This document shows, one piece after another, positions 3,725-62,350 of a stretch of 64,000 nt of DNA. Source of the stretch: Dehalococcoidia bacterium (GTDB taxonomy: Bacteria; Chloroflexota; Dehalococcoidia; GIF9; AB-539-J10); assembly GCA_030611085.1 (NCBI GenBank), contig JAUWQI010000001.1:32390-96389 (forward strand). The letters run 5' to 3'. Both the position numbers and the translations under genes were made by a program. Positions within the stretch are counted from its first letter, which is position 1. Each line of letters starts with the position of its first letter. The notes below the pieces were generated by a model. It ran no database searches. It was not told where the DNA came from and saw only the letters and a program-made list of their open reading frames with translations.

Positions 3725-6142
3725 ATGAAAATTGAGAGAGCTTTGATTTCTGTACTTTTAGTGGCTACCGTTCTGATTACCGGCTGTGGAACTGCTCAGC
3801 CACCCATATCCTCCGAGTTTACTATACCTTCGGTAGCTGGGAATGAGGTATCAAACCCCAAACTTGTTATGGGGAGCTGCTATAAGCCTGGAGATGTTTC
3901 TATGTCTCCTAACGCTCCTTCCTATCTATTGCCTCTGGATTTAGGTGAAATAACAAACTTGGGGAAGGTAGAATCGGAGTTTGGACTGAATGAAAGCCAA
4001 AAGCAGCTTCTGGAGAAAAATGGTTTTGTCGTTATTCCCTGGCATGGTGATGACATTGTCCAGCCTTATAAGACGCTTAAGGAGCAAGAAATTCCCATCT
4101 TTGTTACCTCGGATACTTTACTTCACTTATATCATATCCAGTTCAATGAAATCTTAAAACGCCTTGAGGAGGAAGAGTTTTTTGATGAGCTAATCGATAC
4201 GAGCTTGGCGATGATGGAAAGGGCAGAGCAGGATTACGAATCCTTCGCCGATGCTGACCTGAAGGAGGCTGCGAGAAGAAATGTGGCTTATTTCACCGTG
4301 GCTCTGAAGCTCCTGCAGACGCCGACCGGGGGATATGATGAAGCAAAGGTTAAACAGGAAATCGAGAAATGGAATAAAGAGCATCCCTGGGACAAGAAGG
4401 AGTTCAAGCCATTAAAGAAAGTTGATTTTGCTATCCCTAAGTATGTGGCGGATGAAGTTGACAAAGAAATTGAAAACATCGAAGCACACAAAGGCTTCAA
4501 GCCCAGTGCCATATTTAATTCGGAGAAAGATTGTGCCTGTGGATATCCCTGCTGCTATTGCGAGGACTACTCCCAGTATGTTCCCAGGGGGCATTACACC
4601 AGGAGCGAGGTGCTTAAAAGGTATTTCAAAGCGGCGATGTGGTATGGCAGGATGGCTTTCCTGCTCAAGGGTGGGGAGGGAGATGAATGTATGCAGCCAG
4701 AAGGGCCTTTGGTTAGTGAGAAAGATGCCAAAATAGCTACCATTCAAGCCGCGCTTATTTCAGCAGAACTGTCCCTTGTGTCATTGCGAGCGGAGCGAAG
4801 CAATCCCACCACGGTTTGGGAAATATGGAACAGAATTTACTCCGTCACTTCATTCTTTGTGGGCACCGCCGATGACCTGACACCCTACGAATACCTGGAT
4901 GCTATAGAGAAGGTTTTTGGCACCAGCTTTGATGTCAGTCAGCTTGCTAACGAGGAAGAACTGCTCAAGCTTAAAGCTGAGCTAGCTCAAATGAGGAATC
5001 CTGAAATCTATGGCGGCTCTGGCATTTGCGTTATCGCTCCCCCGGTAACTAAAGAAAAGCTCTACGAGTGCCTGGCTAAGACAAAGGGGATGAGATTCAT
5101 GGGGCAGAGGTTTATCCCCGACTCATATATGTTTCAGAATCTGATCTTTCCCACTGTGGGTAATTATGTGGGCAAGGATGAGCCATTTACCATGAAGATG
5201 ACTATACTCGGTCCTCAGAGATGCTTCCCCCGAGGATTAGATGTCATGGGAGTTTTGGGCTCTGAGCGGGCTTATGAGATATTGAAGGCCGAAGGCGATA
5301 CCGAATACCAGGGGAAAGACACCAGTTATGATAAGCAGCTAGGCGAGCTTAGAAAGGAATTTGGTGCTTTTACTGAGGAAGACTGGAATCATAATCTTTA
5401 TTGGAGTTGGCTTTATGCCTTGAAGCCGCTGCTTGAGAATTTCAACCAAGGTTATCCCGCCTTTATGCAAACCGAGGCATGGCAGGATAAGGAACTGCAA
5501 ACTGCCTTAGCATCCTGGACTGAGCTTCGGCATGACACCATTCTATATGCCAAGCAAAGCTATACTCCAGCGGCAACAGCGATGCCACCTCAGCCAAAAC
5601 CTGTGGTGGGCTATGTCGAACCCATTCCTGAGTTTTATTCCCGCATGCTGGCACTCACCACAATGACAAAAAATGGGCTAGCCCAGCTCGATGCCTTAAG
5701 CGACAAGGAGAAGTCGAGACTGGAGAGATTGGAAGGCATTCTGGAGAGGTTAATCCAAATCTCCAAAGATGAGTTAGAAGGCAAAGAACTAAGCAAAGAG
5801 GATTATGGATTCATCAGGAATTTTGGTGGGCAGCTCAATTCTATAGTCGCTGGTGTTGAGGCTAAAGGCAAGGAAACCACCCTTGTTGCTGATGTTCATA
5901 CTGATACTAACTCACCAATGGAAGTCTTGGAAGAAGGGGTGGGTTATGTTGACCTTGCCTTAGTGGCTTATAAAGTTCCCGATGGCAGGATTATCCTTGG
6001 CGCTGGCCCCACGCTTAGCTACTATGAGTTCAAACAGCTTATGGAGCAAGGAAGATTGACTGATGAGCAGTGGAAGGAGATGCTAGAGCAAGGGCAACAG
6101 CCTCCAAGGCCAGATTGGATAGATAGCTTCTATGCTGGCTAG
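3725..6142 (+). CDS. lipoprotein, DUF3160-like large extracytoplasmic protein
   Basis: lipobox LITGCG; Cys cluster CACGYPCCYCEDY; 805 aa; contains in-frame family-1 repeat at 4780-4806. Confidence 0.55.
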   Translation: MKIERALISVLLVATVLITGCGTAQPPISSEFTIPSVAGNEVSNPKLVMGSCYKPGDVSMSPNAPSYLLPLDLGEITNLGKVESEFGLNESQKQLLEKNGFVVIPWHGDDIVQPYKTLKEQEIPIFVTSDTLLHLYHIQFNEILKRLEEEEFFDELIDTSLAMMERAEQDYESFADADLKEAARRNVAYFTVALKLLQTPTGGYDEAKVKQEIEKWNKEHPWDKKEFKPLKKVDFAIPKYVADEVDKEIENIEAHKGFKPSAIFNSEKDCACGYPCCYCEDYSQYVPRGHYTRSEVLKRYFKAAMWYGRMAFLLKGGEGDECMQPEGPLVSEKDAKIATIQAALISAELSLVSLRAERSNPTTVWEIWNRIYSVTSFFVGTADDLTPYEYLDAIEKVFGTSFDVSQLANEEELLKLKAELAQMRNPEIYGGSGICVIAPPVTKEKLYECLAKTKGMRFMGQRFIPDSYMFQNLIFPTVGNYVGKDEPFTMKMTILGPQRCFPRGLDVMGVLGSERAYEILKAEGDTEYQGKDTSYDKQLGELRKEFGAFTEEDWNHNLYWSWLYALKPLLENFNQGYPAFMQTEAWQDKELQTALASWTELRHDTILYAKQSYTPAATAMPPQPKPVVGYVEPIPEFYSRMLALTTMTKNGLAQLDALSDKEKSRLERLEGILERLIQISKDELEGKELSKEDYGFIRNFGGQLNSIVAGVEAKGKETTLVADVHTDTNSPMEVLEEGVGYVDLALVAYKVPDGRIILGAGPTLSYYEFKQLMEQGRLTDEQWKEMLEQGQQPPRPDWIDSFYAG

Positions 6143-6200
6143 CGGGTGTTTAAGCAATGTAGTGCGAGGCTTTAGCCTCGTGCACGACCCTAAGGTCGCA

Positions 6201-7100
6201 CTACGAAATCAACTCGGCAATTGTGTCGCTGCCACTATCTAGAGGGTAATATTTGAGCACTGCGCCATGTTTTGGGTCTGGTCCTACTTCCAACATAGTC
6301 TTGTCTACAGCCTGCGCTATAGTTAATTTGTCAGAAGCACATAGGTGGTGGAGCAGTCTCATAGAGGCATGGTCAACATATTCCAAATCCACTGTAGCAT
6401 CCCAGGCAAGATAAACCGAGGCTCCTTTACCAACAAACGATTGGGCTAAATCATCAAGTCGAAGGCAAGAGCAACCAGTTATGATTATGACTGCGTTATC
6501 GAACTGCTCCTGCATACTGTTGGAGATGAATTTTGGGGTAATACCGAAGAAAAGTGAGCCGTTCCCTTCCCATACTTCCACTATCAGAAGTTCTTCATTT
6601 ATCTGTTCTCTAAAATGCCCCGCTTTACTATATGGCTCGTTGGTGAATAAGGCGGTTGTATGCATTAGTGGTTCATCCTCAGCTCTCATGAGCCCAGAAT
6701 GAGTTCGGAAGATGATTAACTTATATCCATAGCGCGGCAAATTCTGATAAAGGTCCACTGTGACATCGCCGCCTTGATAAACATCCACACCGAAGCCATA
6801 ATCTTCGAGCTCCTGAGTTACCTTAGCGGTGAAATCCTCGTTGAGGTAATTGGTATAAAGCTGGTCGACTATAGCTGCCCTTAGGTTTTGCTGACTAACC
6901 GGGTTGGCAGAGTGGGAAGTAAGCAAAAAAATGGCAGCAAAGGCAGCAATAAATAAAACCACAGTAACCCATAACCAAGGGAAACCTCTCTTTGGGAACT
7001 TTCCTTTAAGTTGTTTCCCATTCATGGGCTTGGCCAATGTAAATCTTGTGGCGTAGATTATGAAGAGATTTCTTAAGAGTCCCCGCCAAGCAAATTTCAC
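6201..7100 (-). CDS. membrane-anchored hypothetical protein (alternative start at 7033)
   Basis: single N-terminal TM helix then ~240-aa soluble domain; function unknown. Confidence 0.5.
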   Translation of the reverse strand: MKFAWRGLLRNLFIIYATRFTLAKPMNGKQLKGKFPKRGFPWLWVTVVLFIAAFAAIFLLTSHSANPVSQQNLRAAIVDQLYTNYLNEDFTAKVTQELEDYGFGVDVYQGGDVTVDLYQNLPRYGYKLIIFRTHSGLMRAEDEPLMHTTALFTNEPYSKAGHFREQINEELLIVEVWEGNGSLFFGITPKFISNSMQEQFDNAVIIITGCSCLRLDDLAQSFVGKGASVYLAWDATVDLEYVDHASMRLLHHLCASDKLTIAQAVDKTMLEVGPDPKHGAVLKYYPLDSGSDTIAELIS

Positions 7101-18851: not shown

Positions 18852-19568
18852 CTAAAGTAAGCGTCTTCCTCTGGTTTTGCCTTTTATTCTGATGCCCAGA
18901 ACATCACTTAGAAGATGCTGAGCATGCCAATAAGTGTCATTAACAACTTGTTTGCCCAGGGGTAAAACCCCCAAAGGGTCAACAGCTTTTTCATCGAAAT
19001 CAAGCCCGAATTTTCTAGCAAGCTCCCTTAGCTCAAATAATATGTCCTCGATACTAAGAGTAGAGAAAGCTTCATCTTGCACATTTTCCTGAGATGTATC
19101 GGGGGCAGACTGGTGATACTCTCGTCTTTTCGCCTTTTCTTTTAACACCTTGAAGGCTCCATATACCCTCATGAGCTTCCCCAGGTTATCTCCACTGAGA
19201 TCCACGACATTACGATATTTGTTTACTAATTTTGTGGATGCCTTATCAATATCTTGCTCAGAAGCATCCTTACTCACCTCTAACATCTCATATAGGATGC
19301 TCTCAAAGTTAGAATCAAGGGAAGTCTCATCTTCGCCATGTGCTTGAGTAAATGCATCCAGCCCAAGGCGGTCATATTCTCGCTTTTTCCCCTCATCTTT
19401 CAACACAGAGTAAGCCTGATATACTTCCTCAAACTTCCCCTCGTTGCCCCTTCGTGGGTTTATTTGCGGATGATATTGGAGTGCTAATTTTATGAATGCC
19501 TTTTCCATCTTTGCTTTATTAGCATTCCTATCCACCTCTAATATCTGGTAATAATCCTGCTTGTGCAT
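18852..19568 (-). CDS. J-domain protein
   Basis: DYYQILEV...YHPQ (HPD-like position) J-domain at N-terminus, second degenerate J-like segment. Confidence 0.65.
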   Translation of the reverse strand: MHKQDYYQILEVDRNANKAKMEKAFIKLALQYHPQINPRRGNEGKFEEVYQAYSVLKDEGKKREYDRLGLDAFTQAHGEDETSLDSNFESILYEMLEVSKDASEQDIDKASTKLVNKYRNVVDLSGDNLGKLMRVYGAFKVLKEKAKRREYHQSAPDTSQENVQDEAFSTLSIEDILFELRELARKFGLDFDEKAVDPLGVLPLGKQVVNDTYWHAQHLLSDVLGIRIKGKTRGRRLL

Positions 19569-19601
19569 ATAGTTTGCCCTCCCCAAATTTTTCAACCGAG
19601 T

Positions 19602-21176
19602 TTAAATTTTCAAAATGATAATTACCAATAGAGCTGTAATTACTACTACGGCGATAGCCCATGCTGCGTGGTTATTATTATTGCTCTTCACATTAAATTC
19701 CATCTCACCGCGTTCGATTTTGTTCATTATTGCTGTTGCCTGCCTCGGCAAATCCTTGATGAAATCAACAGCCTCGGCAGCGGAGTCCGCTAAATCGAGC
19801 AGAAAGTCCTTGGGCTCGGTTAAGCCCAATACATCTGCTTTGTTTCTCAATCTCTTGCGCCCGAGTCGCTTAAGATGGGGGTCGAACATATCGTATACAT
19901 TAAAGCCAGGATATAGCTGGTTTGCCAGTATCTCCACATAGAGGTAGGTTTTAAACACCAACACCATGTGCCTTGGCAGCCTGACTCCATATCCAAAAAC
20001 GGTCTTAGTGAGGTCATCCATAATATGGCCCACTCCCCTTTGCCCCAGGGGCATCTTGCCGTCTACAAAGTGGCGATCGATAAATGTGCCCATCTCCAAT
20101 TCTAGCTTCTCAACATCTACCTCATCTCTTTCTCCGGTATGCATCCTCATAAGCTCCTTCGTCAGCCTAATCGGGTCGTTGGAGTCGAAAGCCAGTATCA
20201 AGTCTCCCAGCATGTCCAACTGCTTATCTTCTATGCGCTCTATCATGCCGAAGTCCAGGACTGCAATGACATTGTCTTCCAGCACATATAAATTCCCCGG
20301 GTGGGGGTCAGCCTGCAGAAAGCCATCCTCGTGTATCATTTTCAGATAAGCCCTGGTCACATTCAGGGCTATTTCATATTTATCCAACCCTGCTCTGTCC
20401 ATAGCCTTAAAGTCATTTATCCTGATGCCCTCTATGAGTTCCTCGACTAGCACCCTCTTGGAGGTGTAATCCCAGTATACCTTGGGTATATACACTGTAT
20501 CATCATTCTTGAAGTTTTTGGCTATTTTGTCGGCATTGCGTCCCTCCAGAATATAATCTATCTCCCTCCTCAGTGAAGTGCCAAAGGCATCAACTATATC
20601 TGGCAGATGACTGCTTCTAATTCTAGGGAATAACTTATCAATAAGGAGGGCGAGGAAATCCAGGAGCGACAAGTCGACTTCAATTATGCTCTCTATATCA
20701 GGACGCTGAATCTTCACTGCCACCTTTTTCCGCCTGCTTCTTCCCTGCCTCAGCACCGCCTTATGCACCTGCCCCAGGGATGCGGCTGCAAGTGGCTCCT
20801 TATCAAATGAGACAAACAATTCCTCTACGGGGGCTGCCAACTCTTCCTCGATGATGTCCTCCACATCCTTATAGCTGAAGGGAGGTACTTGCTCCTGTAG
20901 CTTCTCCATCTCTTTCTTCAGCGCTTCAGGACACTCGGCCCTGGTGCTCAGAATTTGACCAAATTTGATAAAAGTGGGTCCCAGTTCCTCTATTAAACGC
21001 CGAACTAGCGCTCCAATGCCACCGCGGCTGCCCACCCGATTTCGGCGTTTGCCCCATATCTTGCTGAGTAAGACGCGAAATAGAAACTTTATCATTATGC
21101 CAATTATCCCGAGGAATCGGCGCAGCGTTACAAACCTTCGATATGTGTTGCTGAGTTCCCAAAGTGCTTTGTTCAT
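19602..21176 (-). CDS. ABC1/UbiB-family atypical kinase
   Basis: GPTFIKFGQILSTR...ASLGQVHKA motifs, C-terminal TM helix. Confidence 0.85.
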   Translation of the reverse strand: MNKALWELSNTYRRFVTLRRFLGIIGIMIKFLFRVLLSKIWGKRRNRVGSRGGIGALVRRLIEELGPTFIKFGQILSTRAECPEALKKEMEKLQEQVPPFSYKDVEDIIEEELAAPVEELFVSFDKEPLAAASLGQVHKAVLRQGRSRRKKVAVKIQRPDIESIIEVDLSLLDFLALLIDKLFPRIRSSHLPDIVDAFGTSLRREIDYILEGRNADKIAKNFKNDDTVYIPKVYWDYTSKRVLVEELIEGIRINDFKAMDRAGLDKYEIALNVTRAYLKMIHEDGFLQADPHPGNLYVLEDNVIAVLDFGMIERIEDKQLDMLGDLILAFDSNDPIRLTKELMRMHTGERDEVDVEKLELEMGTFIDRHFVDGKMPLGQRGVGHIMDDLTKTVFGYGVRLPRHMVLVFKTYLYVEILANQLYPGFNVYDMFDPHLKRLGRKRLRNKADVLGLTEPKDFLLDLADSAAEAVDFIKDLPRQATAIMNKIERGEMEFNVKSNNNNHAAWAIAVVVITALLVIIILKI

Positions 21177-21197: not shown

Positions 21198-21238
21198 CTT
21201 AAATTAAAAGTTGCCCCCAACACAAAAGCAGGGGGCAA
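21198..21238 (-). terminator. rho-independent terminator ending the minus-strand small-gene array
   Basis: GTTGCCCCC-loop-GGGGGCAAC stem followed by TTTTAATTT on the minus strand. Confidence 0.7.
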
Positions 21239-21372
21239 CTTCCAAGAGCTTGCTATATTTGGCACCATCGCCAACCGCAACCATAAGCCGTTTACACCAA
21301 GAAACCGCTCTTCATTGTTTTCACAGGCACCTGGTGCAATACCCGGCTTCCATTAGCTACTTTCTTTAGACT

Positions 21373-21768
21373 TTACTTGATTTTGGCAATTAACTCTTCG
21401 GCCTCATCTAAGACCTTCCTAGCCCTTGCAATAGCCTCCTCTGTTCCTTCTACAGATTTGGCCTTGATTTTGGCGCCAGCATCGGTTAGCTCTTGCTCTA
21501 TCGATGCCACTGCCTTTCTAGCTTTGCTTAGGTGCTCCTTAGCCGGGACCCTTGTCTCTTCAGGCTCCTTTTCTGCTTTCGTCTCTGCTTCTGCTAGCGC
21601 CTCTTTTACTCTAGCCATAGATCTCATAGCTTCATCTAGTGCCTTATCGCTTGCTTCTATAGTCCCCTTTTTGAGCAGGCCCACTATTTCGCCAGCCCCG
21701 ACTCTGGTTTCCTCTAGCCCCTTCCTTATCCTCGTTATCGCTTCTCCTAGTTCTTTACCAATCTCCAT
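21373..21768 (-). CDS. Ala/Glu/Lys-rich amphipathic-helix protein (LEA/phasin-like composition)
   Basis: 131 aa, low complexity helical, followed by strong rho-independent terminator. Confidence 0.5.
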   Translation of the reverse strand: MEIGKELGEAITRIRKGLEETRVGAGEIVGLLKKGTIEASDKALDEAMRSMARVKEALAEAETKAEKEPEETRVPAKEHLSKARKAVASIEQELTDAGAKIKAKSVEGTEEAIARARKVLDEAEELIAKIK

Positions 21769-21867
21769 TTCTCCTCCTTTAACGTTTGCTCTTACATTAG
21801 AAAACGCCAGGGCAATAAACTTGCCCGCTAAAAATTTCTCGCCACTGAGTTTTGCTTATTGGTTACA

Positions 21868-22053
21868 TCATTTTGCTACACTCTTATGAGTTACCTCGCG
21901 CTCTAAGGCAAAAAGAGCAAGCCTCATGATGTCGACTTCAACACCACACTGCGGACAGTCTTCGGTCATCGAACCTCTTATCGGGGTTTCATCGGTATCA
22001 ACCTCAGTAGTAATCGCCCCCCCACAATATGGGCACTCTATCTCAAGCTTCAC
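21868..22053 (-). CDS. small Zn-ribbon protein
   Basis: CPYCGG...CPQCG in 61 aa. Confidence 0.45.
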   Translation of the reverse strand: MKLEIECPYCGGAITTEVDTDETPIRGSMTEDCPQCGVEVDIMRLALFALEREVTHKSVAK

Positions 22054-22064
22054 AATATGCCTCC

Positions 22065-22319
22065 TTATGATTTGGCTATTAGCTTCCCATCGCAGTATAT
22101 GTCTATTTTTAGACCTGAGAGCCCTCGACCAAATTTCACTCTCATCTCATGCTTTTCTTGCTCGCCTAGGGTGAATCTCTGCGTCTCACTAAACGAAGTA
22201 ACTGCCCACTTATCTATGATGTCATCTCCGTCAACCGTTACCTTCCTCCTGCCCAGCAAGCCTTGCTCTGCCTCAACCTCATGCCTTTCTGTATCCCCTA
22301 CTGTAGTTCTAAGTTTCAT
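22065..22319 (-). CDS. hypothetical small protein
   Basis: 84-aa ORF in minus-strand array, 12 nt after previous gene. Confidence 0.4.
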   Translation of the reverse strand: MKLRTTVGDTERHEVEAEQGLLGRRKVTVDGDDIIDKWAVTSFSETQRFTLGEQEKHEMRVKFGRGLSGLKIDIYCDGKLIAKS

Positions 22320-22344
22320 CTCACCCTCCTTTCTTATACTTTAT

Positions 22345-22797
22345 TTACCCCAGTTTCCATACTGCCTTGAAGGTCATATCCACCATATCTTCTGGAATGG
22401 CGACATGTGCTATCCCTTCGAAGTCAAGGGTAGTGTTTCCATGTTCCATCTGATTTATTATCATCTTGGCGAGGTCACCACTCAGGGGAGTTTTGACCTC
22501 CGACTTAGCATACTCCGCTGTATGCGATGGGATATAAACCTCCTCATCAACATATCCTTCGCCGACTTTCGCGTTGCCCTCTCGGAAATATATCCTGTAT
22601 TTAGCTCGCTGCACCATCACAGGAAACTCGTTGGGGTTGAAGATGTGGAACACTATTTCCAGGGTCAGCAGTCGCTCCCGAAGACCGAGACTAGCAAATT
22701 TAGCCCCACGCCCACGAATAGCAAACCTTAATTGTTTAACCTCGTCCTTATCCTCTTTGTCTCTCACTCTTTCCAGCATCTCCACACTAGACTTCAC
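22345..22797 (-). CDS. LEA_2 / WHy (water-stress and hypersensitive response) domain protein
   Basis: NPN motif followed by alternating beta pattern typical of LEA14-like domains. Confidence 0.5.
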   Translation of the reverse strand: MKSSVEMLERVRDKEDKDEVKQLRFAIRGRGAKFASLGLRERLLTLEIVFHIFNPNEFPVMVQRAKYRIYFREGNAKVGEGYVDEEVYIPSHTAEYAKSEVKTPLSGDLAKMIINQMEHGNTTLDFEGIAHVAIPEDMVDMTFKAVWKLG

Positions 22798-22844
22798 CCT
22801 TTCAGGTCAAATTTAGCCATTAGTCAGACAGCGATAAGAATATT

Positions 22845-23054
22845 TTAGATGTTTAGTAGGAATGGAGATGAATCCCCTTCTAGAGCTTCGAAATTTATCT
22901 CTATATTGCCGATTAGCCGAGGGGTCTGCCCCACAAATTCGAGCTCTATGTCATCTATGTCTATAACGAAATTTCTCTCCCACAATCTGGCTCTAGCTTC
23001 GCCCTCTTCTCCAGAGGTGAGAGCTAATCCTACTTTTTCCTCTGACATTGCCAT
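22845..23054 (-). CDS. small motif-family protein P4 (start at MAMSEEK)
   Basis: contains VIDIDDIELEFVGQTPRLIGNIEINF variant of shared motif; RBS GAGTGAGGTG. Confidence 0.45.
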   Translation of the reverse strand: MAMSEEKVGLALTSGEEGEARARLWERNFVIDIDDIELEFVGQTPRLIGNIEINFEALEGDSSPFLLNI

Positions 23055-23058
23055 CACC

Positions 23059-23241
23059 TCACTCTCTCTCAATTTTTCTCATTGGCTCCATATGGAACTT
23101 AATCTTTCCCATCAAGTCAAGCGACTTCCCAAAAAATTTACGACCCACTTCCTCCATATCCAGCTCCTCAGTCGTTCCCTCATCAACAGCCCTGTTTAAG
23201 TAGTCAAATACCGACTGCCGACCTCTCTGCCCCCTTTTCAT
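23059..23241 (-). CDS. small motif-family protein P3 (start at MKRGQ)
   Basis: LDMEEVGRKFFGKSLDLMGKIKF motif; RBS GGGAGGT; overlaps next gene by 4 nt. Confidence 0.5.
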   Translation of the reverse strand: MKRGQRGRQSVFDYLNRAVDEGTTEELDMEEVGRKFFGKSLDLMGKIKFHMEPMRKIERE

Positions 23242-23261
23242 TGCTTTACCTCCCGCGCCAT

Positions 23262-23290
23262 AGCAGGCTGAGTCCCGGGGCACAGCCTGC
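23262..23290 (-). terminator. intercistronic hairpin (GCAGGCTG...CAGCCTGC) between P1 and P3 genes
   Basis: 8-bp GC-rich stem, no clear T-tract; attenuator or processing site. Confidence 0.35.
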
Positions 23291-23326
23291 TATGGATTTA
23301 ATTTTCAAGGCATGCCGCCTTAGTGT

Positions 23327-23503
23327 TTACTTGGGTTTCTTTAAGGTTCCCAGGCTGATGTTTACCTTCCCCAACAACTTGAGGGAGCGTCCAAAGAGCT
23401 TGCCGCCAACATCTTCCATATCAATGTTGAGGTCGGTTTCCTTATCGGTAATCTTGTCTACCAGGTCAAGGACTGGTCCCTGTTCTTTGTCTACTTCTGC
23501 CAT
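23327..23503 (-). CDS. small motif-family protein P1 (58 aa, below ORF-track cutoff)
   Basis: my own translation: MAEVDKEQGPVLDLVDKITDKETDLNIDMEDVGGKLFGRSLKLLGKVNISLGTLKKPK; RBS AGGAGGG 7 nt upstream. Confidence 0.55.
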   Translation of the reverse strand: MAEVDKEQGPVLDLVDKITDKETDLNIDMEDVGGKLFGRSLKLLGKVNISLGTLKKPK

Positions 23504-23604
23504 TGTTCTTACCCTCCTTATAAATTTTCTATAATTTGCAAGCTATGCCCCCGGGACGCGGCTTACTATAGGGGTTAATCTTCAATGTAACTTTCTCTCA
23601 GTAT

Positions 23605-24024
23605 TTACTTGGACTTCTTCAAGGTTCCCAGGTCAATGTTTACCTTCCCCAGCAATCTTAAGGAACGCCCAAAGAGTTTGCCACCGACATCTTCAATATT
23701 GATGTTCAGGCTGGTCTCCTTATCGGTAATCTTGTCTATCAGGTCGAGCACTGGTCCTTGCTCTTTTTCTACTTCTGCCATTGTTATTACCTCCTCTGGT
23801 ATTTTTTCTATTTCCACTGCTTCTTCTACCGCTGGTACTTCCTCTATCAGCTTCTTCGCTGCTGCTATAAATGTGCCGCCTCTATCTCCGACTATCCCTT
23901 CGAGCTCCTCAGGGCTGGCTACTGCTACAGCCTCGACCGTCATATACCCGGCTGCAGCCAGTTTTTTTGCCGTTGTCGGACCGACCCCGGCAACCTTCTG
24001 TAGTTCCTCTTCAGTGTCAATCAT
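23605..24024 (-). CDS. helix-hairpin-helix domain fused to a P1 paralog
   Basis: N-terminal VAGVGPTTAKKLAAAGY...PEELEGIVG HhH; C-terminal 58 aa ~85% identical to P1. The fossil RBS of the duplicated gene (GGAGGT) is translated as EEV. Confidence 0.6.
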   Translation of the reverse strand: MIDTEEELQKVAGVGPTTAKKLAAAGYMTVEAVAVASPEELEGIVGDRGGTFIAAAKKLIEEVPAVEEAVEIEKIPEEVITMAEVEKEQGPVLDLIDKITDKETSLNINIEDVGGKLFGRSLRLLGKVNIDLGTLKKSK

Positions 24025-24398
24025 CTTAGCATTACCTCCTTTCTAAATATATTTTAGAGAATTAAACCTCGTGCCTTCTGAAGCCATTCCACAGGCTTTT
24101 TGAAGACACTAGCCACTTAATTGACTAGAGCACTGATTGTGCTGAGACATTCTCCTCTAATAGTTCAGAGGAGAATACATCCGAAATGCTGAAAACCCTG
24201 CCTTTGGTATTAAGAGACCTGGGGATACCGACTTACAGACCTTCAGCATTTGCTTAGAGCTGGCTAATGGTGCCAGCGAAAAGAGCAATACCTGTTCTAT
24301 AGGCATTGCTGATAATGAGTGATAAGGATTGTTCTTCACTTCCTTAATCACTGTGCTAAAAATTGCTTTCATCTTCACCCTTTTCTCTCTTCCCTTTC

Positions 24399-24590
24399 TC
24401 ACCTCTGCCTTTTCCTCTTTTTCTTCCCCCATCCTACCTTTAATCCATCTGCGCCAAACTTGCCATCTAAGCGGATAATTGTTCTATCAGTAAAAGGAAA
24501 CTTAATTTCCATATTATCGAAGTCTATAGACAAATTACATTCTCTATCTTCAATCTTTTTCTTTAGGTCGTCTAAAAATCCTTCACCCAT
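24399..24590 (-). CDS. small motif-family protein P5
   Basis: LSIDFDNMEIKFPFTDRTIIRLDGKF variant of motif, basic C-tail; RBS GGAGG. Confidence 0.4.
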   Translation of the reverse strand: MGEGFLDDLKKKIEDRECNLSIDFDNMEIKFPFTDRTIIRLDGKFGADGLKVGWGKKKRKRQR

Positions 24591-24678
24591 GTTTAGTCTT
24601 CCTCCCCAATGGACTTTAAATTATATGGCGCATCCAACATCATATACGCGTTTTACTTGTGGGGTTTTCACCCCCACC

Positions 24679-25134
24679 TTACCTCTCTCCCTTCAAAGGA
24701 GAGGAATTCAAGCCTCGCAATGACATCGATTTAATCCTTTTATCATTTCTATGTGGCAGCTCAGTCTCCCCATAGCGGCATAGCGAGGCCCTAATCTGAG
24801 CTGCTAGCTCGTCATAATTTGTGGGTAACTGCATGTAATAATCCCAGTCCGTAGGGACTTCCGAGTTTGGGGAATAAACTTCCCCCTCCGATTTAGTACC
24901 CAAAAGGATGAGAGGAAGATTAAATAAACGGTGTATTTGCCAACAGAGAGTGAAGCCATCTAGCCCGGGAGGGCTATCCCTGACAACAACTGCGTCAGGG
25001 GTAGCCTTATCCACTATTTTAAACCCCGCTAATTCGGATGAGGCTACCATCACCTCAAAGCCAGACCCGGTAAGAGCTGAAGCTATCTTCTTTGCCGAGG
25101 CAAGGTCGCTGTCGATAACAAGAACACTATTCAT
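24679..25134 (-). CDS. stand-alone response-regulator receiver domain protein
   Basis: VLVIDSD...VVVRDSPPGLDGF...LLGTK CheY-like receiver. C-terminal tail partly encoded by a family-1 repeat fragment. Confidence 0.65.
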   Translation of the reverse strand: MNSVLVIDSDLASAKKIASALTGSGFEVMVASSELAGFKIVDKATPDAVVVRDSPPGLDGFTLCWQIHRLFNLPLILLGTKSEGEVYSPNSEVPTDWDYYMQLPTNYDELAAQIRASLCRYGETELPHRNDKRIKSMSLRGLNSSPLKGER

Positions 25135-25271: not shown

Positions 25272-25445
25272 CATGTCACCCTGAGCCCTTCGCTTCATGT
25301 CATTCTGAAGAAGCGGAGCGACTGAAGAATCTCCTCTTCAGTTCCTTCCTATCGTCAGGACTTAGAGCTTCGGCTTACCAAGACAGGCTTCGCGAAGGAT
25401 CTAAAAAGGACAAAGAGATTCTTCGCTCCACTCAGAATGACAGAG
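25272..25445. repeat. family-1 palindromic element (composite copy)
   Basis: GTCACCCTGAG / GTCATTCTGAAG ... CTCAGAATGACAG inverted termini in the RR / integrase divergent spacer. Confidence 0.8.
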
Positions 25446-25683: not shown

Positions 25684-26670
25684 ATGCAACAGGAGCTAAA
25701 TAGATTTCTTCACTATCTTGAGGTTGAGAAGGGATATTCCCAAGGCACTATCGAGGCATATCGGCTTGATATAGGAAAAGGGCTATTCCCATTCCTGCAT
25801 GAGATTGAGATTGCCACGCCTTCGGCTCGCAATGACAGGGTAGAAGAGGTCACGAAGGATGACATCCGAGCATATTTGGACTATCTAGCTGTTGAAAGGG
25901 CTAACTCCGGTGTTACCAGAGCACGCAAGCTAGCAGCAATAAAGTCATTCTTCAATTACTTGGTGGAAAATGAAGGGCTTGAAGCAAACCCGGCAGCTTC
26001 GGTAAAGAGTCCCAAGATACCTGAAAAGGAGCCGGTGTATCTGAGTGAGGAAGAGTGCCTTCGTTTTTTACAGATAATAGCCCAAAAAGCCAGACCACAG
26101 GTTAGAGAGCGGGATATGGCAATAGCTATGCTCTTGCTTCATACTGGGCTAAGGGTATCGGAGCTAACAAATCTGAAATTTTCTAATGTTGATCTTGAGA
26201 GAAGTCAGATAAAAATAACCAGGAAAGGGAGTAAAGAACAATATCTTCACCTGAATGGTGAAGCAGTAAGCGTATTGGTAAATTACCTTCATAGCTATCC
26301 ATATGACAGGAGATTGCCACGCTTCGCTCGCAATGACAGGGGGGAGATGGCTCGCAATGACGGAGGACTTTTGCCACAGGCTCAAAACGGCAGGTTTTTT
26401 GTAGGAACCAAAGGTCAAAATCTGAACCGCACTTATGTTTATAGTGTGGTGCGAAGATACTTAGAACTGGCGGGTATCAATAAAGATAAGCAGGGACCTC
26501 ACCTCTTGAGACATACCTTCTGCACCAGGCTACATCAGAAGGGAGTCTCACCCTTCGTGATAAAGGAACTCGCTGGTCACAAAAGCCTTAATACAACCAT
26601 GAGATATATCAAAATAGAAAATAAGGAGCAGTCTGAAGCCCTTGATAGACTGGAGTTTGGTATTCTTTAA
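25684..26670 (+). CDS. tyrosine site-specific recombinase (XerC/XerD/phage-integrase family)
   Basis: N-terminal SAM-like domain; catalytic R...HxxR...Y (LLRHTFCT...TTMRY) motifs; carries two in-frame family-1 repeat insertions. Confidence 0.85.
   Translation: MQQELNRFLHYLEVEKGYSQGTIEAYRLDIGKGLFPFLHEIEIATPSARNDRVEEVTKDDIRAYLDYLAVERANSGVTRARKLAAIKSFFNYLVENEGLEANPAASVKSPKIPEKEPVYLSEEECLRFLQIIAQKARPQVRERDMAIAMLLLHTGLRVSELTNLKFSNVDLERSQIKITRKGSKEQYLHLNGEAVSVLVNYLHSYPYDRRLPRFARNDRGEMARNDGGLLPQAQNGRFFVGTKGQNLNRTYVYSVVRRYLELAGINKDKQGPHLLRHTFCTRLHQKGVSPFVIKELAGHKSLNTTMRYIKIENKEQSEALDRLEFGIL
26306..26365. repeat. family-1 element fragments in frame in integrase (second of two; the other at 25812-25838)
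   Basis: tandem CTCGCAATGACAGG / CTCGCAATGACGG inside ORF encoding ARNDRGEMARNDGG. Confidence 0.8.
26585..26653 (+). repeat. direct repeat DR-L (3' end of integrase gene)
   Basis: 69 bp, 68/69 identical to 27639-27707. Confidence 0.9.
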
Positions 26671-29787: not shown

Positions 29788-32379
29788 TTAGCTCCATTCG
29801 ACTTCCTTAGGCCATACTTGGCTTAGTTGCTGACCTAGAAGTTGATGTTCCGCTGTTTTGAAATCAGGGTCGCTTTGGAAAATACTTATTGCCTCTTGCC
29901 GAGCCAATTCTAAGAGATGCAAGTTAGACAGCTTAGCTACTTTAAGGTCGGGCAAGCCACTTTGCTGAGTGCCAAAAAACTCCCCCGGGCCTCTTAGCTC
30001 TAAGTCTTTCTCCGCTAGAGCGAAGCCATCGTGGATTTTCTCCATTAGCTTTAGCCGCTCCTTTACCTCGGGCGAAAATTTCCCAGGAATAAGTATACAA
30101 TAACCTTGCTCTTTGCCTCGGCCTACTCTTCCCCTGAATTGATGAAGCTGAGATAAGCCAAAATGGTCAGCACCTTCTATCACCATAACTGTAGCTTTAG
30201 GCACATCAATACCGACCTCTATTACTGATGTTGACACCAGGATATCAATTTCCCCAGCACGGAAGTGGCGCATCACCTTCTCTTTGTCCTCAGCGTGCAT
30301 TTGGCCATGAAGCAATCCCAGCCTTAAATCTGGGAAAATCTCTTTAGATAGGCGTTCGTATTCTGTTGTAGCCGCTTTTGCCTCAGGCAATTCCGATTCT
30401 TCGACTAGTGGACAAATAATGAAGGCTTGTCCTCCATTGCTAACCTGGCGGTGGAGGAAACCATAAACCTTTCCTGTATATCGTGGCTCAATACACTTCG
30501 TTTTTACCACCCGTCGTCCTGGAGGTAACTCATCAATAACTGAGAGGTCGAGGTCTCCATAAAGTGTCAGCGCCATAGTTCGAGGAATAGGTGTAGCTGT
30601 CATAACCAACACATGAGGATTGAACCCCTTTTGCCGGAGCTTCTGGCGTTGCAACACGCCAAAGCGATGTTGCTCGTCTATCACTGTCAAGCCCAGCTTG
30701 TTAAATTCTACCCCTTTTTGAATGAGGGCATGAGTGCCAATAACAATATCAATTTCACCTTGCGTGATCTTACGGTGTAAATTCTCCTTTTCACCTTCCC
30801 TAAGGCTGCCGATGAGAAGAGCGATAGTAAGCGGTCGTGGGAGAAATTCTGAAAAGGATGCAAGCGAGGAATCTCGCTCCTCGCAATGACAGGTTTGGGT
30901 GCTGGCTTTAGCTAGATATTCGCTGATACTAGCGAAATGCTGTTCGGCTAATACTTCAGTGGGGGCCATCAGTGCTCCTTGATAGCCATTGGCAACAGCT
31001 ATTAGTAGAGCCAAAACGGCGATTACGGTTTTACCACTACCTACCTCGCCTTGAAGAAGGCGTGACATAGCTTTTGGGCGTTTGAGGTCGATTGAGATCT
31101 CCTCCAGCACTCGCTCCTGAGCCCGAGTTAGGGTGAAAGGAAAGCAGTGTAAAAATTTGCTAATAAGCTCCGGGTCTATATTAAAGGCATTGCCCGGCTG
31201 ACTTTCTTGCCAGTCGCGCTTTCTTCTCAAGACACCTAGTTGGAGAAGGAATAACTCGTCAAAGGCTAACCTCTCCCGTGCTTCCTCTGCTATCAATTGG
31301 CTATCAGGGTAATGAGCTTGCTTGATTGCTTCAGGGAGGTCTGGCAGGCGGCAGTGATTTTTTATATTTTGGGGCAAGAAATCACTCACTTGCCATAGCC
31401 AGCCGTCAATAGCTTCCTTCGTCCATCCCCTCACTCGCCTGGGATACAAGCCTCGAGTGAGAGGATAAACGGGAACCAATCGGCCGGTGTGAATTAACTC
31501 TTTATCTTCAAGTAATTCCCATTCCGGAGATTCAAAAACCTTCTGCCCTTTGAATAAACTTACTGTGCCACTAATTACCACTTTAGCATTGGTAGGGAAT
31601 TTCTTAGCTAGATAAGGTTGGTTAAACCAAACTACTCTGATGTTTCCTGTCTCATCACCCACAATTGCCTCTGTGCCTCGCCGATTGCCAAAAGTGGCCA
31701 CTCTGGCTTGCCATACTGTGGCTACAATAGTTTGTTCCGCATCTTCCCTAAGTGCGGCGATGAACTTCCTTTGGCTATAGTCAACATAGCGTCTGGGGAA
31801 AAAATAAAGCAAGTCACGCACTACCCTCACATTAAGTTTGGCAAATTTAGCAGATGCCTTAGGCGTTATACCTTTGATGATAGTTATGGGTGAATCTAGT
31901 CTTTCATTTTTCTTTTGGGGCTGTGACTTAGCTACTGCTGTTACGCTGATCTGAAGCCCTGAGTCCTGGTCCTGACGATAGGAAGGATCTGAAGGAACTG
32001 AAGGGGCAAGCGAAGGGTCTCTAGATTCTTCGCTACGCTCAGAATGACAGGAAGCGAAGGGCTCAGAATGATAGATAGGAGTCCTTTCCTTTTCCAGCTT
32101 ATCTAGCCAGTCGAAAATGCTTGTCACCCATCTGTGGCGCTCATTTATACTGTGGGAACTGTAGTTGTAGCTAGCCAATCCTAATTCATCAAAGTCGGCT
32201 AAAAGTTGTGAGGTCAACTCCTTCGTTTTCACTTCGTTCAGACTCAGGACAAGGCTTTGCCTGATTCGCTCCGCCTGCTTGTGAAGATATTTATCTAGCC
32301 CGCCGATAACTGCTTTATCGGCATAACCTTTCTTGCATTCCAATTCAAGAACATTTCGTAGCGAGTCGATGTTTAGCAT
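29788..32379 (-). CDS. recG: ATP-dependent DNA helicase RecG (expanded, 863 aa)
   Basis: wedge domain, Walker A GSGKT, DEQHRFG, helicase C motifs; two in-frame family-1 repeat insertions. Confidence 0.9.
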   Translation of the reverse strand: MLNIDSLRNVLELECKKGYADKAVIGGLDKYLHKQAERIRQSLVLSLNEVKTKELTSQLLADFDELGLASYNYSSHSINERHRWVTSIFDWLDKLEKERTPIYHSEPFASCHSERSEESRDPSLAPSVPSDPSYRQDQDSGLQISVTAVAKSQPQKKNERLDSPITIIKGITPKASAKFAKLNVRVVRDLLYFFPRRYVDYSQRKFIAALREDAEQTIVATVWQARVATFGNRRGTEAIVGDETGNIRVVWFNQPYLAKKFPTNAKVVISGTVSLFKGQKVFESPEWELLEDKELIHTGRLVPVYPLTRGLYPRRVRGWTKEAIDGWLWQVSDFLPQNIKNHCRLPDLPEAIKQAHYPDSQLIAEEARERLAFDELFLLQLGVLRRKRDWQESQPGNAFNIDPELISKFLHCFPFTLTRAQERVLEEISIDLKRPKAMSRLLQGEVGSGKTVIAVLALLIAVANGYQGALMAPTEVLAEQHFASISEYLAKASTQTCHCEERDSSLASFSEFLPRPLTIALLIGSLREGEKENLHRKITQGEIDIVIGTHALIQKGVEFNKLGLTVIDEQHRFGVLQRQKLRQKGFNPHVLVMTATPIPRTMALTLYGDLDLSVIDELPPGRRVVKTKCIEPRYTGKVYGFLHRQVSNGGQAFIICPLVEESELPEAKAATTEYERLSKEIFPDLRLGLLHGQMHAEDKEKVMRHFRAGEIDILVSTSVIEVGIDVPKATVMVIEGADHFGLSQLHQFRGRVGRGKEQGYCILIPGKFSPEVKERLKLMEKIHDGFALAEKDLELRGPGEFFGTQQSGLPDLKVAKLSNLHLLELARQEAISIFQSDPDFKTAEHQLLGQQLSQVWPKEVEWS
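30863..30895. repeat. family-1 element fragment in frame in recG
   Basis: CTCGCAATGACAGG core inside ORF. Confidence 0.8.
32009..32075. repeat. family-1 element in frame in recG (second site)
   Basis: GATTCTTCGCTACGCTCAGAATGACAGGAAGCGAAGGGCTCAGAATGA inside ORF. Confidence 0.85.
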
Positions 32380-36093: not shown

Positions 36094-37473
36094 TCATTCC
36101 GAGCGTAGCAAAGAATCTCCCTTGCTTTTTTGCAGTGCTGCTTCTACTTGCTGCGGGGAAGTGCCACCGATGACATCCCGAGCAGCTATGGATGATTCGA
36201 AGGATATACCATATACATCTTCACTGAAGAGAGGTGAGAAATTTTTGTACTCCCTCAGGCTAAGCTCGTGGAAGCTTTTGCCCTCCTTAATAGCATATTC
36301 ACTAAGTTTAGCTACAATGCCATGCGCCTCCCTGAATGGCAAGCCTTTCTTCACTAAATAGTCGGCTATATCGGTAGCCAAAATGTAATCCTTTTTAATA
36401 ACATCACGAATACGCTTAGCATTGACCTTGATTGTTTTTATCATCTCAGCAAATATTTCTAAACTGGAATGTAATGTATCCACGGTGTCGAAAAGCCCTT
36501 CTTTATCCTCCTGCATATCCCGATTATAAGTTAAGGGCAGGCTTTTCATGGTGGTTAGGATAGCCATGAGATTACCGTATACTCGTCCGGTTTTGCCTCG
36601 AGCTAGCTCTGCTACATCGGGATTTTTCTTCTGCGGCATGATGCTGCTGCCCGTAGTGTAGGCTTCACCAAGCTCTATAAAGCCAAACTCGATAGATGAC
36701 CACAGGATAATCTCTTCAGCTAATCGTGAAAGGTGCATCATAGTTAAGGCAGCGGCAGCTTCATATTCTATTATGAAATCCCTATCGGAAACAGCATCAA
36801 GACTATTTGCGCTTACTTTAGTGAAACCCAATTCTTGGGCAACGAATTCACGGTCTACAGGATAAGGAACGCCAGCTAAAGCACCGCTGCCTAGAGGCAA
36901 AACATCAGTGCAGTTGAGACAATTATAGAACCTCTTTTTATCTCGCTGGAGCATCTCAAAATAGGCGAGTAAGTGATGTGCCACAAGAACTGGCTGAGCC
37001 TGCTGCAAATGAGTATAGCCGGGCATGATGACTTCTTTATTGGTTTCAGCTAAGTTTACAAGCGAGCATTGCAAAGCTTCTAACGCATCGATGGTTTTCA
37101 AGATTTCCTCTTTAACAAAGAGGCGCAAATCCAAGGCTATTTGGTCATTCCTGGAACGAGCAGTATGCAGCTTGCCAGCCACATTGCCTATCTTTTCAAA
37201 CAACCTAGCTTCGATATTCATGTGTATATCTTCAAGCTCAGACTTAAACTGAAATTTCCCCTGCTCAATTTCCTCACAAATAGAATTAAGCCCAGCAATT
37301 ATAGCTTCAGCCTCGCTGTTCGTTATTATTCCTTGTTTTGCCAGCATTTTGGCATGAGCGATGCTTCCCTCGACGTCCTGGCGATATAATCGCTGATCAA
37401 AGGGGATAGAAGCAACATAATCTTGTGCCATTCTATTAGCCTCTTTCTGAAAGCGATTACGCAAGTAACTCAT
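36094..37473 (-). CDS. argH: argininosuccinate lyase
   Basis: fumarate-lyase GSSIMPQKKNPD signature. Confidence 0.9.
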   Translation of the reverse strand: MSYLRNRFQKEANRMAQDYVASIPFDQRLYRQDVEGSIAHAKMLAKQGIITNSEAEAIIAGLNSICEEIEQGKFQFKSELEDIHMNIEARLFEKIGNVAGKLHTARSRNDQIALDLRLFVKEEILKTIDALEALQCSLVNLAETNKEVIMPGYTHLQQAQPVLVAHHLLAYFEMLQRDKKRFYNCLNCTDVLPLGSGALAGVPYPVDREFVAQELGFTKVSANSLDAVSDRDFIIEYEAAAALTMMHLSRLAEEIILWSSIEFGFIELGEAYTTGSSIMPQKKNPDVAELARGKTGRVYGNLMAILTTMKSLPLTYNRDMQEDKEGLFDTVDTLHSSLEIFAEMIKTIKVNAKRIRDVIKKDYILATDIADYLVKKGLPFREAHGIVAKLSEYAIKEGKSFHELSLREYKNFSPLFSEDVYGISFESSIAARDVIGGTSPQQVEAALQKSKGDSLLRSE

Positions 37474-50187: not shown

Positions 50188-50257
50188 ACTTTTTCCCTGT
50201 TGTCATTGTGCGACCTTCGCTTATTGTCATTCTGAGCGAAGCGAAGAATCTGAAGAT

Positions 50258-62172: not shown

Positions 62173-62350
62173 GGCAAGTAAGCAAAATTATACCCATAAT
62201 GTATGGCTGTCAAGTTTCCTTGAGGAAAAGGTTGTTTAGCAACTCGACTGTCATTCTGAGCAAAGCGAAGAATCTCCAGACCCTTCGCTATCGCTCAGGG
62301 TGACAAAGTAAGCGACCTTATTGAAAAGCTAGAGAGCTTTAGCTTATAAT

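Follow-up and report, generated by a model that had tools for sequence, protein, structure and literature searches.

Lsr2 and H-NS, together with the truncated partners Hha and H-NST, keep oligomerisation and DNA-binding domains separate. Two-part proteins are likewise found in PhaH, PhaF and PhaM, which tether cytoplasmic bodies to the nucleoid, and in PhaH of Caulobacter the domain involved is a helix-hairpin-helix (HhH) (PMC13052382). Here, we describe a gene cluster that bears comparison with both, located in a 64,000-nucleotide stretch of contig JAUWQI010000001.1 (positions 32,390 to 96,389; the whole stretch analysed is referred to as the window). From position 25134 down to 21373 of the window the minus strand is the only one with plausible genes, and the open reading frame (ORF) list gives a divergent receiver-domain gene followed by nine small genes, all on that strand. 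This is the receiver-led array that had been described in an earlier reading made without database searches (below, the sequence-only reading), and all of its ORFs were found where that reading had placed them. Several of the small genes encode variants of a module of about 55 residues, here called P, which is a previously undescribed protein family, unnamed in current databases.

The simplest representative is P1 (23327-23503, minus strand, as are all cluster coordinates given below), a bare P module of 58 aa; the consensus of the module is EKEQGPxLDLIDKITDKETxLxIxhEDVGGRLFGRSLRLxGKVxIDLGTLKK. HhH-P2 (139 aa, 23605-24024) begins with an HhH domain (approximately aa 3-51), continues with an acidic linker and ends in a P module (aa 82-139, nt 23608-23781). 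The remaining paralogs are P3 (60 aa, 23059-23241), which is basic at its N-terminus, P4 (67 aa, 22845-23048), which is acidic and carries only the hairpin part of the module, and P5 (63 aa, 24399-24590), which ends in a strongly basic tail, GWGKKKRKRQR, and has an isoelectric point of 9.5. Paralogy was assessed in a non-circular manner, with a hidden Markov model (HMM) built solely from P1-type modules of other contigs and compared with all 1015 six-frame ORFs of the window. The five P ORFs were the five best of all, with E-values of 3e-37 for HhH-P2, 3e-35 for P1, 4e-12 for P3, 0.004 for P4 and 0.013 for P5, and the next ORF followed at 1.4. When profiles were aligned with hhalign, the P5 type matched the P1 type over 41 columns comprising helix and hairpin (94.5% probability, E=8e-8), and the P4 type matched it over 37 columns of the hairpin only (38.9%, E=3e-4), the N-terminal helix being unaligned and indeed not recognisable in P4. 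P1, HhH-P2, P3 and P5 clearly share one module, consisting of an N-terminal helix and a long beta-hairpin, and P4 is, judging from its sequence, a probable member of the family that shares the hairpin alone. The motif that the sequence-only reading had attributed to all five paralogs was thus upheld for four of them, and in P4 it is confined to the hairpin and more weakly supported.

A segment of 195 nt is directly repeated between P1 and the C-terminal part of HhH-P2, the two copies being 84% identical in DNA. The dN/dS ratio is approximately 0.12 between P1 and the module of HhH-P2 and 0.18 between tandem P1 copies of a related locus (L007), indicating that purifying selection acts on the P modules as coding sequences. 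From locus to locus the P1-type modules retain 70-80% identity, whereas the ABC1 kinases encoded in the same loci are only 49-63% identical. The structure of P1 alone, whose prediction had been proposed in the sequence-only reading, was modelled with AlphaFold as a helix (residues 11-19) followed by a long hairpin (23-37/40-53), with a pLDDT of 64.6 and a pTM of 0.33. The predicted helix is amphipathic, and the predicted hairpin is a 15-residue one with the indels seen among homologs located at the predicted turn. As read from the residues, the first strand of the hairpin has conserved acidic and the second conserved basic positions. All P proteins are hydrophilic, with hydropathy (GRAVY) values from -0.04 to -0.92, P5 and P3 being basic and P4 and HhH-P2 acidic. 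The proposed fusion of one paralog to an HhH domain was confirmed by HHH_5 (PF14520; aa 6-46, 40.5 bits against a cut-off of 27, E=3.7e-10), the domain resembling the N-terminal region of RadA (NCBIfam); HhH-P2 has 21 full-length homologs, and the same fusion is found in bacteria, in an archaeal metagenome-assembled genome (MAG) and on one unassigned contig.

No model in Pfam, NCBIfam, PHROGs or PADLOC matched the P module. Comparison with the PDB gave chance coiled-coil matches only when sequence profiles were used and no match when folds were compared, in agreement with the earlier impression that the motif lies outside known families. It was also considered whether P had become detached from the LEA_2 protein or b84, two further products of the cluster described below, as a copy of their first hairpin, and this was rejected (hhalign probability <1%).

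A word-indexed search of 5.8 billion proteins identified 49 relatives. A profile run exhaustively against 1.84 billion representative proteins recovered about 25 clusters with the module, the remaining matches of that search hitting only the HhH part of the profile. The carriers belong to one narrow bacterial lineage, possibly within Chloroflexota and with no close relative sequenced, and to a few archaeal MAGs, and a more distant clade of P includes proteins assigned by NCBI to archaeal MAGs. The family was absent from the GTDB representative genomes searched, and none of 80 GTDB loci found by a scan for the ABC1 kinase had a P gene; the closest GTDB kinases are at most 41% identical to that of the window, and the top three come from Anaerolineae MAGs. 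A scan of JGI metagenome contigs yielded 29 P loci from a handful of samples.

In all architectures the P module is C-terminal to its partners, which are HhH domains (21 proteins), receiver domains (about 10 proteins of some 183 aa) and acidic extensions. In the protein P0025 the module is preceded by a different N-terminal domain, which weakly matches a Pfam model of winged-helix type (RPA_C, E=0.009), and, as this is the only such match, we do not claim a winged-helix identity for that domain. Two gene orders were encountered on other contigs. Layout A, to which the window conforms, reads [RR] P5 (acidic-P) HhH-P P1(xn) P3 P4 LEA_2 b84 Zn ABC1(+), with RR for response regulator and Zn for the zinc ribbon gene. 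Layout B starts with a histidine kinase (HK) gene and reads HK RR RR-P acidic-P P1 P3 P4 b84 Zn P5 P P P5' LEA_2 ABC1(-). P1, P3, P4, P5, LEA_2, b84 and the zinc ribbon are present in both, so that this set survives rearrangement, and the neighbourhood is conserved on other contigs. Orthologs of P3 were found in L003, L006 and L007, those of P4 and P5 in the same three loci and in L010, and L003 and L007 have bare P1 in two to three near-identical tandem copies. A histidine kinase with a GAF domain (in L003, for instance, at 288-1661) and a response regulator are usually encoded directly upstream of the cluster in relatives. In two loci of layout A, genes for a 72-aa protein and a 250-aa TPR protein lie between this two-component system and P5 (L006 2570-3625, L007 2507-3562); the 72-aa protein resembles the N-terminal domain of P0025, and neither gene occurs in the window.

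Natural deletion variants were also observed. L008 (9521-10438) and L009 retain a truncated RR-P, LEA_2, the zinc ribbon and a shortened ABC1 gene without P genes, and L127-L130 retain the histidine kinase, the response regulator and a receiver with the P helix only, followed by unrelated genes (L127 8411-8933); in these variants the RR-P fusion is cut inside or just after the P helix. In several archaeal contigs a lone P gene of 61 aa is placed between the genes of a DEAD-box helicase and a GTPase of the YchF/OLA1 type (L091 10001-10186, L094 9449-9634), a setting that hints at an RNA- or ribosome-related context of the ancestral module. Another archaeal MAG contig, L096, carries a mini-cluster, adjoining two Usp genes, in which P (52 aa) and HhH-P (157 aa) are accompanied by a basic-tailed P5-like protein. 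On the unassigned contig L098, HhH-P and two P-like genes stand between two paralogous phasin-like genes (79-432 and 6135-6497; PF05597, 26.3 bits against a cut-off of 28.8), and a transglutaminase-core gene also brackets this trio. The trio in L096 and its similar counterpart in L098 indicate that the pairing of P with a DNA-binding domain is old and extends beyond one lineage.

The first gene of the cluster encodes RR151 (24679-25134), a stand-alone atypical receiver that passes the PF00072 cut-off narrowly (31.2 against 30.2 bits) and is 33% identical to the receiver of the RR-P fusion P0037. Alignment to CheY showed that the phospho-acceptor aspartate (D57) is kept, within VVVRDSPP, and that RR151 has Gly at the position of T87 and Leu at that of K109; the RR-P fusions keep the Lys, not the Thr. 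The product of 22345-22797 is a cytoplasmic protein of 146-150 aa with an NPN motif (HIFNPNEFPV), whose residues N54, P55 and N56 do not vary among 29 homologs. Only 36 homologs of it were found, all at least 59% identical, and most of them carry PF03168. Its AlphaFold model (pLDDT 83.7) matched in the PDB, using Foldseek, Af_0446 (3but, E=1.5e-8) and the luminal domain of TMEM106B (8b7d, E=7.9e-7, TM 0.59), with LEA14 (1xo8) at rank 36 (E=1.1e-3). On the predicted fold it is accepted as a LEA_2-fold protein, and the earlier assignment to LEA_2/WHy holds for motif and predicted fold, although the Pfam score lies just under the cut-off (24.4 against 25.4 bits).

Two further partners, b84 (22065-22319; 84 aa, beta-rich) and a CPXCG-type zinc ribbon of 61 aa (21868-22053), are always paired. 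The best Pfam match of b84 is FAIM1 (PF06905), below cut-off (18.8 against 22 bits, E=0.0014), and its top PDB profile match is likewise FAIM1 (3mx7, E=0.29), a weak resemblance that we take as a lead and not as membership. The zinc ribbon had been recognised as such in the sequence-only reading and exceeds the cut-off of Cys_rich_CPXG (PF14255, 28.8 against 25.2 bits), with two CxxC pairs in CPYCG and CPQCG. The last gene of the unit encodes AE131 (21373-21768), an Ala/Glu/Lys-rich helical protein of 131 aa with no significant family match in Pfam or NCBIfam. It had been counted as a LEA-like part of the cluster; however, it is not conserved: apart from the window, only contigs identical to it encode the protein, which is thus specific to this genome.

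Each cluster ORF is preceded by a Shine-Dalgarno-like GGAGG, and the same gene set was called on an identical 150-kb ENA contig. The strong terminator anticipated at the end of the array was found at 21206-21239 (-31.3 kcal/mol, z=-6.4), approximately 135 nt downstream of the last gene, as a GC-rich stem followed by the U-run UUUUAAUUU. It separates the cluster from the ABC1/UbiB-family atypical kinase gene (19602-21176, minus strand; PF03109, E=3e-80), which is a separate transcription unit. An inverted repeat between P1 and P3 (23258-23295) forms a stable RNA hairpin without a U-tract (-33.5 kcal/mol, z=-2.6) and may be a transcript-stabilising or attenuating element. Based on the gene calls of the identical contig, P3 probably starts at an internal ATG after GGGAGG, giving 60 aa instead of the 74 aa of the longest ORF from 23283, and P4 probably also starts at an internal ATG, giving 67 instead of 75 aa from 23072. 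A 91-aa ORF (24157-24432, minus strand) without family match overlaps P5 at its end, in a different reading frame, and holds a terminator-like hairpin (24284-24310). A short ORF in L010 resembles it only where it overlaps the P5 tail in another frame. As the acidic-extension P gene occupies this position in relatives, the 91-aa ORF is probably spurious, non-coding or a remnant. An Rfam scan of the whole window gave no match, and a scan for promoter consensus sequences showed no enrichment over shuffled sequence.

The reading that we favour, with a probability of about 0.35, is that P modules associate with one another to build a scaffold tethered to DNA and regulated by a signal. The module is found free and in multiple copies, four conserved paralog types are kept together, and HhH or receiver domains are appended to it, all of which argues for a unit capable of self- and hetero-association, conceivably through strand-edge, charge-complementary contacts; a lone hairpin of this type, as modelled, would probably not be stable in monomeric form. 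The paralogs would co-assemble into one oligomeric or polymeric scaffold, and the near-identical tandem copies of bare P1 suggest that P1 could be its bulk structural subunit. Non-specific tethering of the scaffold to nucleic acid would fall to HhH-P2 and to the basic tails on P5 and P3, a role for which the HhH-mediated nucleoid tether of PhaH provides a precedent (PMC13052382). The kinase and response regulator upstream in relatives, together with the existence of RR-P fusions, suggest that assembly could be coupled to a phosphorelay, of which the stand-alone RR151 would be the reduced form in the window. Such a scaffold would probably be made on an intracellular signal, for example of stress or dormancy, and with the LEA_2 and FAIM-like proteins it might form a structure on the nucleoid that protects or organises it. 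The indications of a role in stress, desiccation or the nucleoid, namely the LEA_2 fold, the weak FAIM1 resemblance, the DNA-binding fusions, the basic tails and the archaeal Usp genes, are circumstantial.

Several observations weigh against a scaffold of this kind. The monomer model of P1 is of low confidence, the deletion variants show that the P genes are dispensable, and the lone archaeal genes show that P is not dependent on the rest of the cluster. RR151 is missing two of the conserved receiver residues and may not undergo phosphorylation in the usual manner, and a cognate kinase for it was searched for in the window and found absent. Furthermore, all bacterial examples belong to one narrow lineage, as is evident from the identity of the LEA_2 homologs (at least 59%), which limits the weight of the synteny. 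An extended form of the scaffold reading, which we consider improbable, regards P as the building block of a novel prokaryotic cytoplasmic polymer or compartment coat in a lineage of uncultured sediment bacteria and in some archaea, in which bare subunits would form a lattice and the HhH, receiver and basic-tail paralogs would plug in DNA attachment and phosphorelay control.

The main rival of the scaffold is an inclusion coat, in which the P proteins, the amphipathic AE131 and the LEA_2 protein would cover a storage inclusion or lipid body that HhH-P2 ties to the nucleoid for partitioning, in the manner of PhaH, PhaF and PhaM on PHB granules. We hold this to be unlikely, as we do the view that the P proteins are independent small nucleic-acid- or protein-binding factors, for instance chaperone- or hydrophilin-like, which arose by tandem expansion and whose neighbours are merely syntenic. 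An inclusion would agree with the constant position of the cluster beside the ABC1/UbiB kinase, an SRPBCC protein of lipid-binding fold and an ICMT/PEMT methyltransferase, with the presence of ABC1 kinases in cyanobacterial lipid droplets (PMC12223511), and with TMEM106B, whose LEA-2 domain was the second-best PDB match of the LEA_2 model, LEA-2 domains being predicted lipid binders (bioRxiv 10.1101/2021.03.12.435176). The phasin-like genes that flank HhH-P and the P-like genes in L098 point the same way, as does the presence of an HhH domain in the phasin PhaH. Yet a strong terminator intervenes between the cluster and the ABC1 gene, which lies on the opposite strand in layout B, and the adjacency, being observed in one narrow lineage, may be inherited synteny. 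The P proteins are moreover hydrophilic and without a phasin or perilipin-like signature in Pfam and NCBIfam, AE131 is not conserved, and no polymer or neutral-lipid synthase was found in the annotated parts of the window (46-64 kb were left out of annotation). Independent action is suggested by the lone P genes in unrelated archaeal contexts, by the evident recent duplication and gene conversion, by the narrow lineage, which weakens the synteny, and by a generic stress theme that accommodates the Usp, LEA_2, FAIM-like and DnaJ-domain neighbours, with anti-aggregation activity reported for FAIM (PMC8712662). Against it stand the joint retention of four separately conserved types (P1, P3, P4 and P5) in both layouts and the recurrence of the trio of P, HhH-P and P5-like proteins in archaeal L096 and unassigned L098, which favour complementary roles in one complex over redundancy, and a P core that is far more conserved than would be expected of a loosely acting hydrophilin.

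Two other explanations are far less probable. GvpA, GvpJ, GvpM and GvpS resemble the P proteins in size (55-80 aa), in the order of N-terminal helix and beta-hairpin, and in having a major protein in several copies with minor diverged paralogs in the same cluster, and the P helix (LDLIDKITDKE) locally resembles GvpA alpha1 (LAEVIDRILDKG), so that P might be a remote homolog of GvpA/J/M in a divergent gas-vesicle-type shell. This idea is largely refuted. Homology to GvpA was rejected because hhalign, run with PDB-verified GvpA sequences, gave 21.5% probability over a 21-residue helix only, and neither Pfam Gas_vesicle (PF00741) nor 7r1c and 8gbs, by sequence or by fold, were matched. In addition, the P hairpin is charged and not hydrophobic, P has no C-terminal second helix, and no genes of gvpN, gvpF/L, gvpK or gvpG type are among the called genes of any locus. 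It is equally hard to credit that the cluster is carried by a mobile element or forms an island of anti-phage defence, even though a XerC/XerD-like tyrosine recombinase gene (25684-26670, plus strand) and mazEF lie directly upstream and some relatives have the cluster while others do not. The recombinase has XerC/XerD as its nearest match, PADLOC and PHROGs gave only chance-level or generic-domain matches for the cluster proteins (AE131 had chance coiled-coil matches and LEA_2 one match with E=0.016 in PADLOC), and no relative was found among 2.9 million viral contigs. GC content is 0.42-0.48 over cluster and flanks, without compositional deviation. Relatives carry the two-component system at the very site of the recombinase and mazEF, the chromosomal position is constant, and the flanks consist of housekeeping genes (truB, hisA/F-type, thiC, argS, recG, dnaN, nadABC and argH). 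The downstream order of ABC1, a DnaJ-domain protein, SRPBCC, ICMT/PEMT, ribF and tyrS is shared with relatives, and the ABC1 kinase gene adjoins the cluster, on either strand, in every related locus long enough to tell. The conclusion that this is accessory DNA, which had been drawn from the integrase and the toxin-antitoxin pair, is not supported by these findings.

The recombinase scores 191 bits against an equivalog cut-off of 335 and has two apparent repeat-derived insertions, SARNDRVEE and FARNDRGEMARNDGG, so that its function may be compromised. A short dispersed repeat, GTCATTCTGAG..GAGCGAAGAATCTC, is present in at least five copies in the window (25415-25441, 32022-32048, 36095-36117, 50226-50252 and 62250-62276), against a chance expectation of zero. 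The recG ORF contains one of these copies in its 5' part, and another is located at the 3' end of an argH-like ORF. In ArgRS and in the recombinase, peptides such as LRAEGEAIS and FARNDR give the impression of having arisen by insertion of this repeat in frame. On the other side of the cluster, the gene next to the ABC1 kinase (18852-19595, minus strand) encodes a 247-aa protein with an N-terminal J domain and a weaker second J-like stretch, but without the zinc-finger or C-terminal domains of DnaJ, and it adjoins the ABC1 kinase in relatives too.

If P is indeed a self-assembling unit to which DNA-binding and receiver domains are attached, the principle by which it organises or protects the nucleoid, or some cytoplasmic body, would be structurally new and would apply to slow-growing, unculturable microbes of the subsurface, and its 55 residues might serve protein engineering as a compact assembly tag. 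A polymer or coat, were it to exist, would be a new modular element of cytoskeleton or organelle type. In the least exciting case there remain a new protein family, a conserved partnership of LEA_2, FAIM-like and zinc ribbon proteins, and a corrected view of the locus with regard to mobile DNA.

The partner proteins can be related to known families only in part. The window LEA_2 protein shares with LEA14, Af_0446 and TMEM106B the NPN motif and, as predicted, the fold of a beta-sandwich plus helix; it differs in being soluble, with no signal peptide or membrane anchor as read, and in being embedded among P paralogs. The protein b84 has the motif region H-x-h-E-x-E...G-K-R-x-V-x-V-D-G of FAIM1, but only half its length, and both scores are below significance. 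The conserved C-terminal placement of P on unrelated domains recalls the cargo peptides of encapsulins and microcompartments; P is, however, a module of 55 residues that also occurs as a free multi-copy protein, and no shell gene is present.

The resemblance to PhaH lies in the combination of a non-specific DNA-binding domain with one that binds an assembly, and in the position of the gene among those of small structural proteins. The HhH domain is C-terminal in PhaH and N-terminal in HhH-P2, the sequence link between the two is that of a generic HhH (NF045508, E=0.023), and P is no phasin by Pfam or NCBIfam; no window protein matched a phasin model, the near-threshold PF05597 matches in the distant L098 being the only ones, and the annotated parts of the window contain no polyhydroxyalkanoate genes. 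No similarity of sequence or fold to Lsr2 and H-NS was found for the P module, the P paralogs are more numerous, and to our knowledge receiver-domain fusions have not been described for these families. The separation of oligomerisation from DNA binding in Lsr2, H-NS, Hha and H-NST is nevertheless akin in its logic to the scheme that we propose for P, and by analogy with H-NS-type systems the P paralogs without a DNA-binding domain could co-assemble with HhH-P and modulate it.

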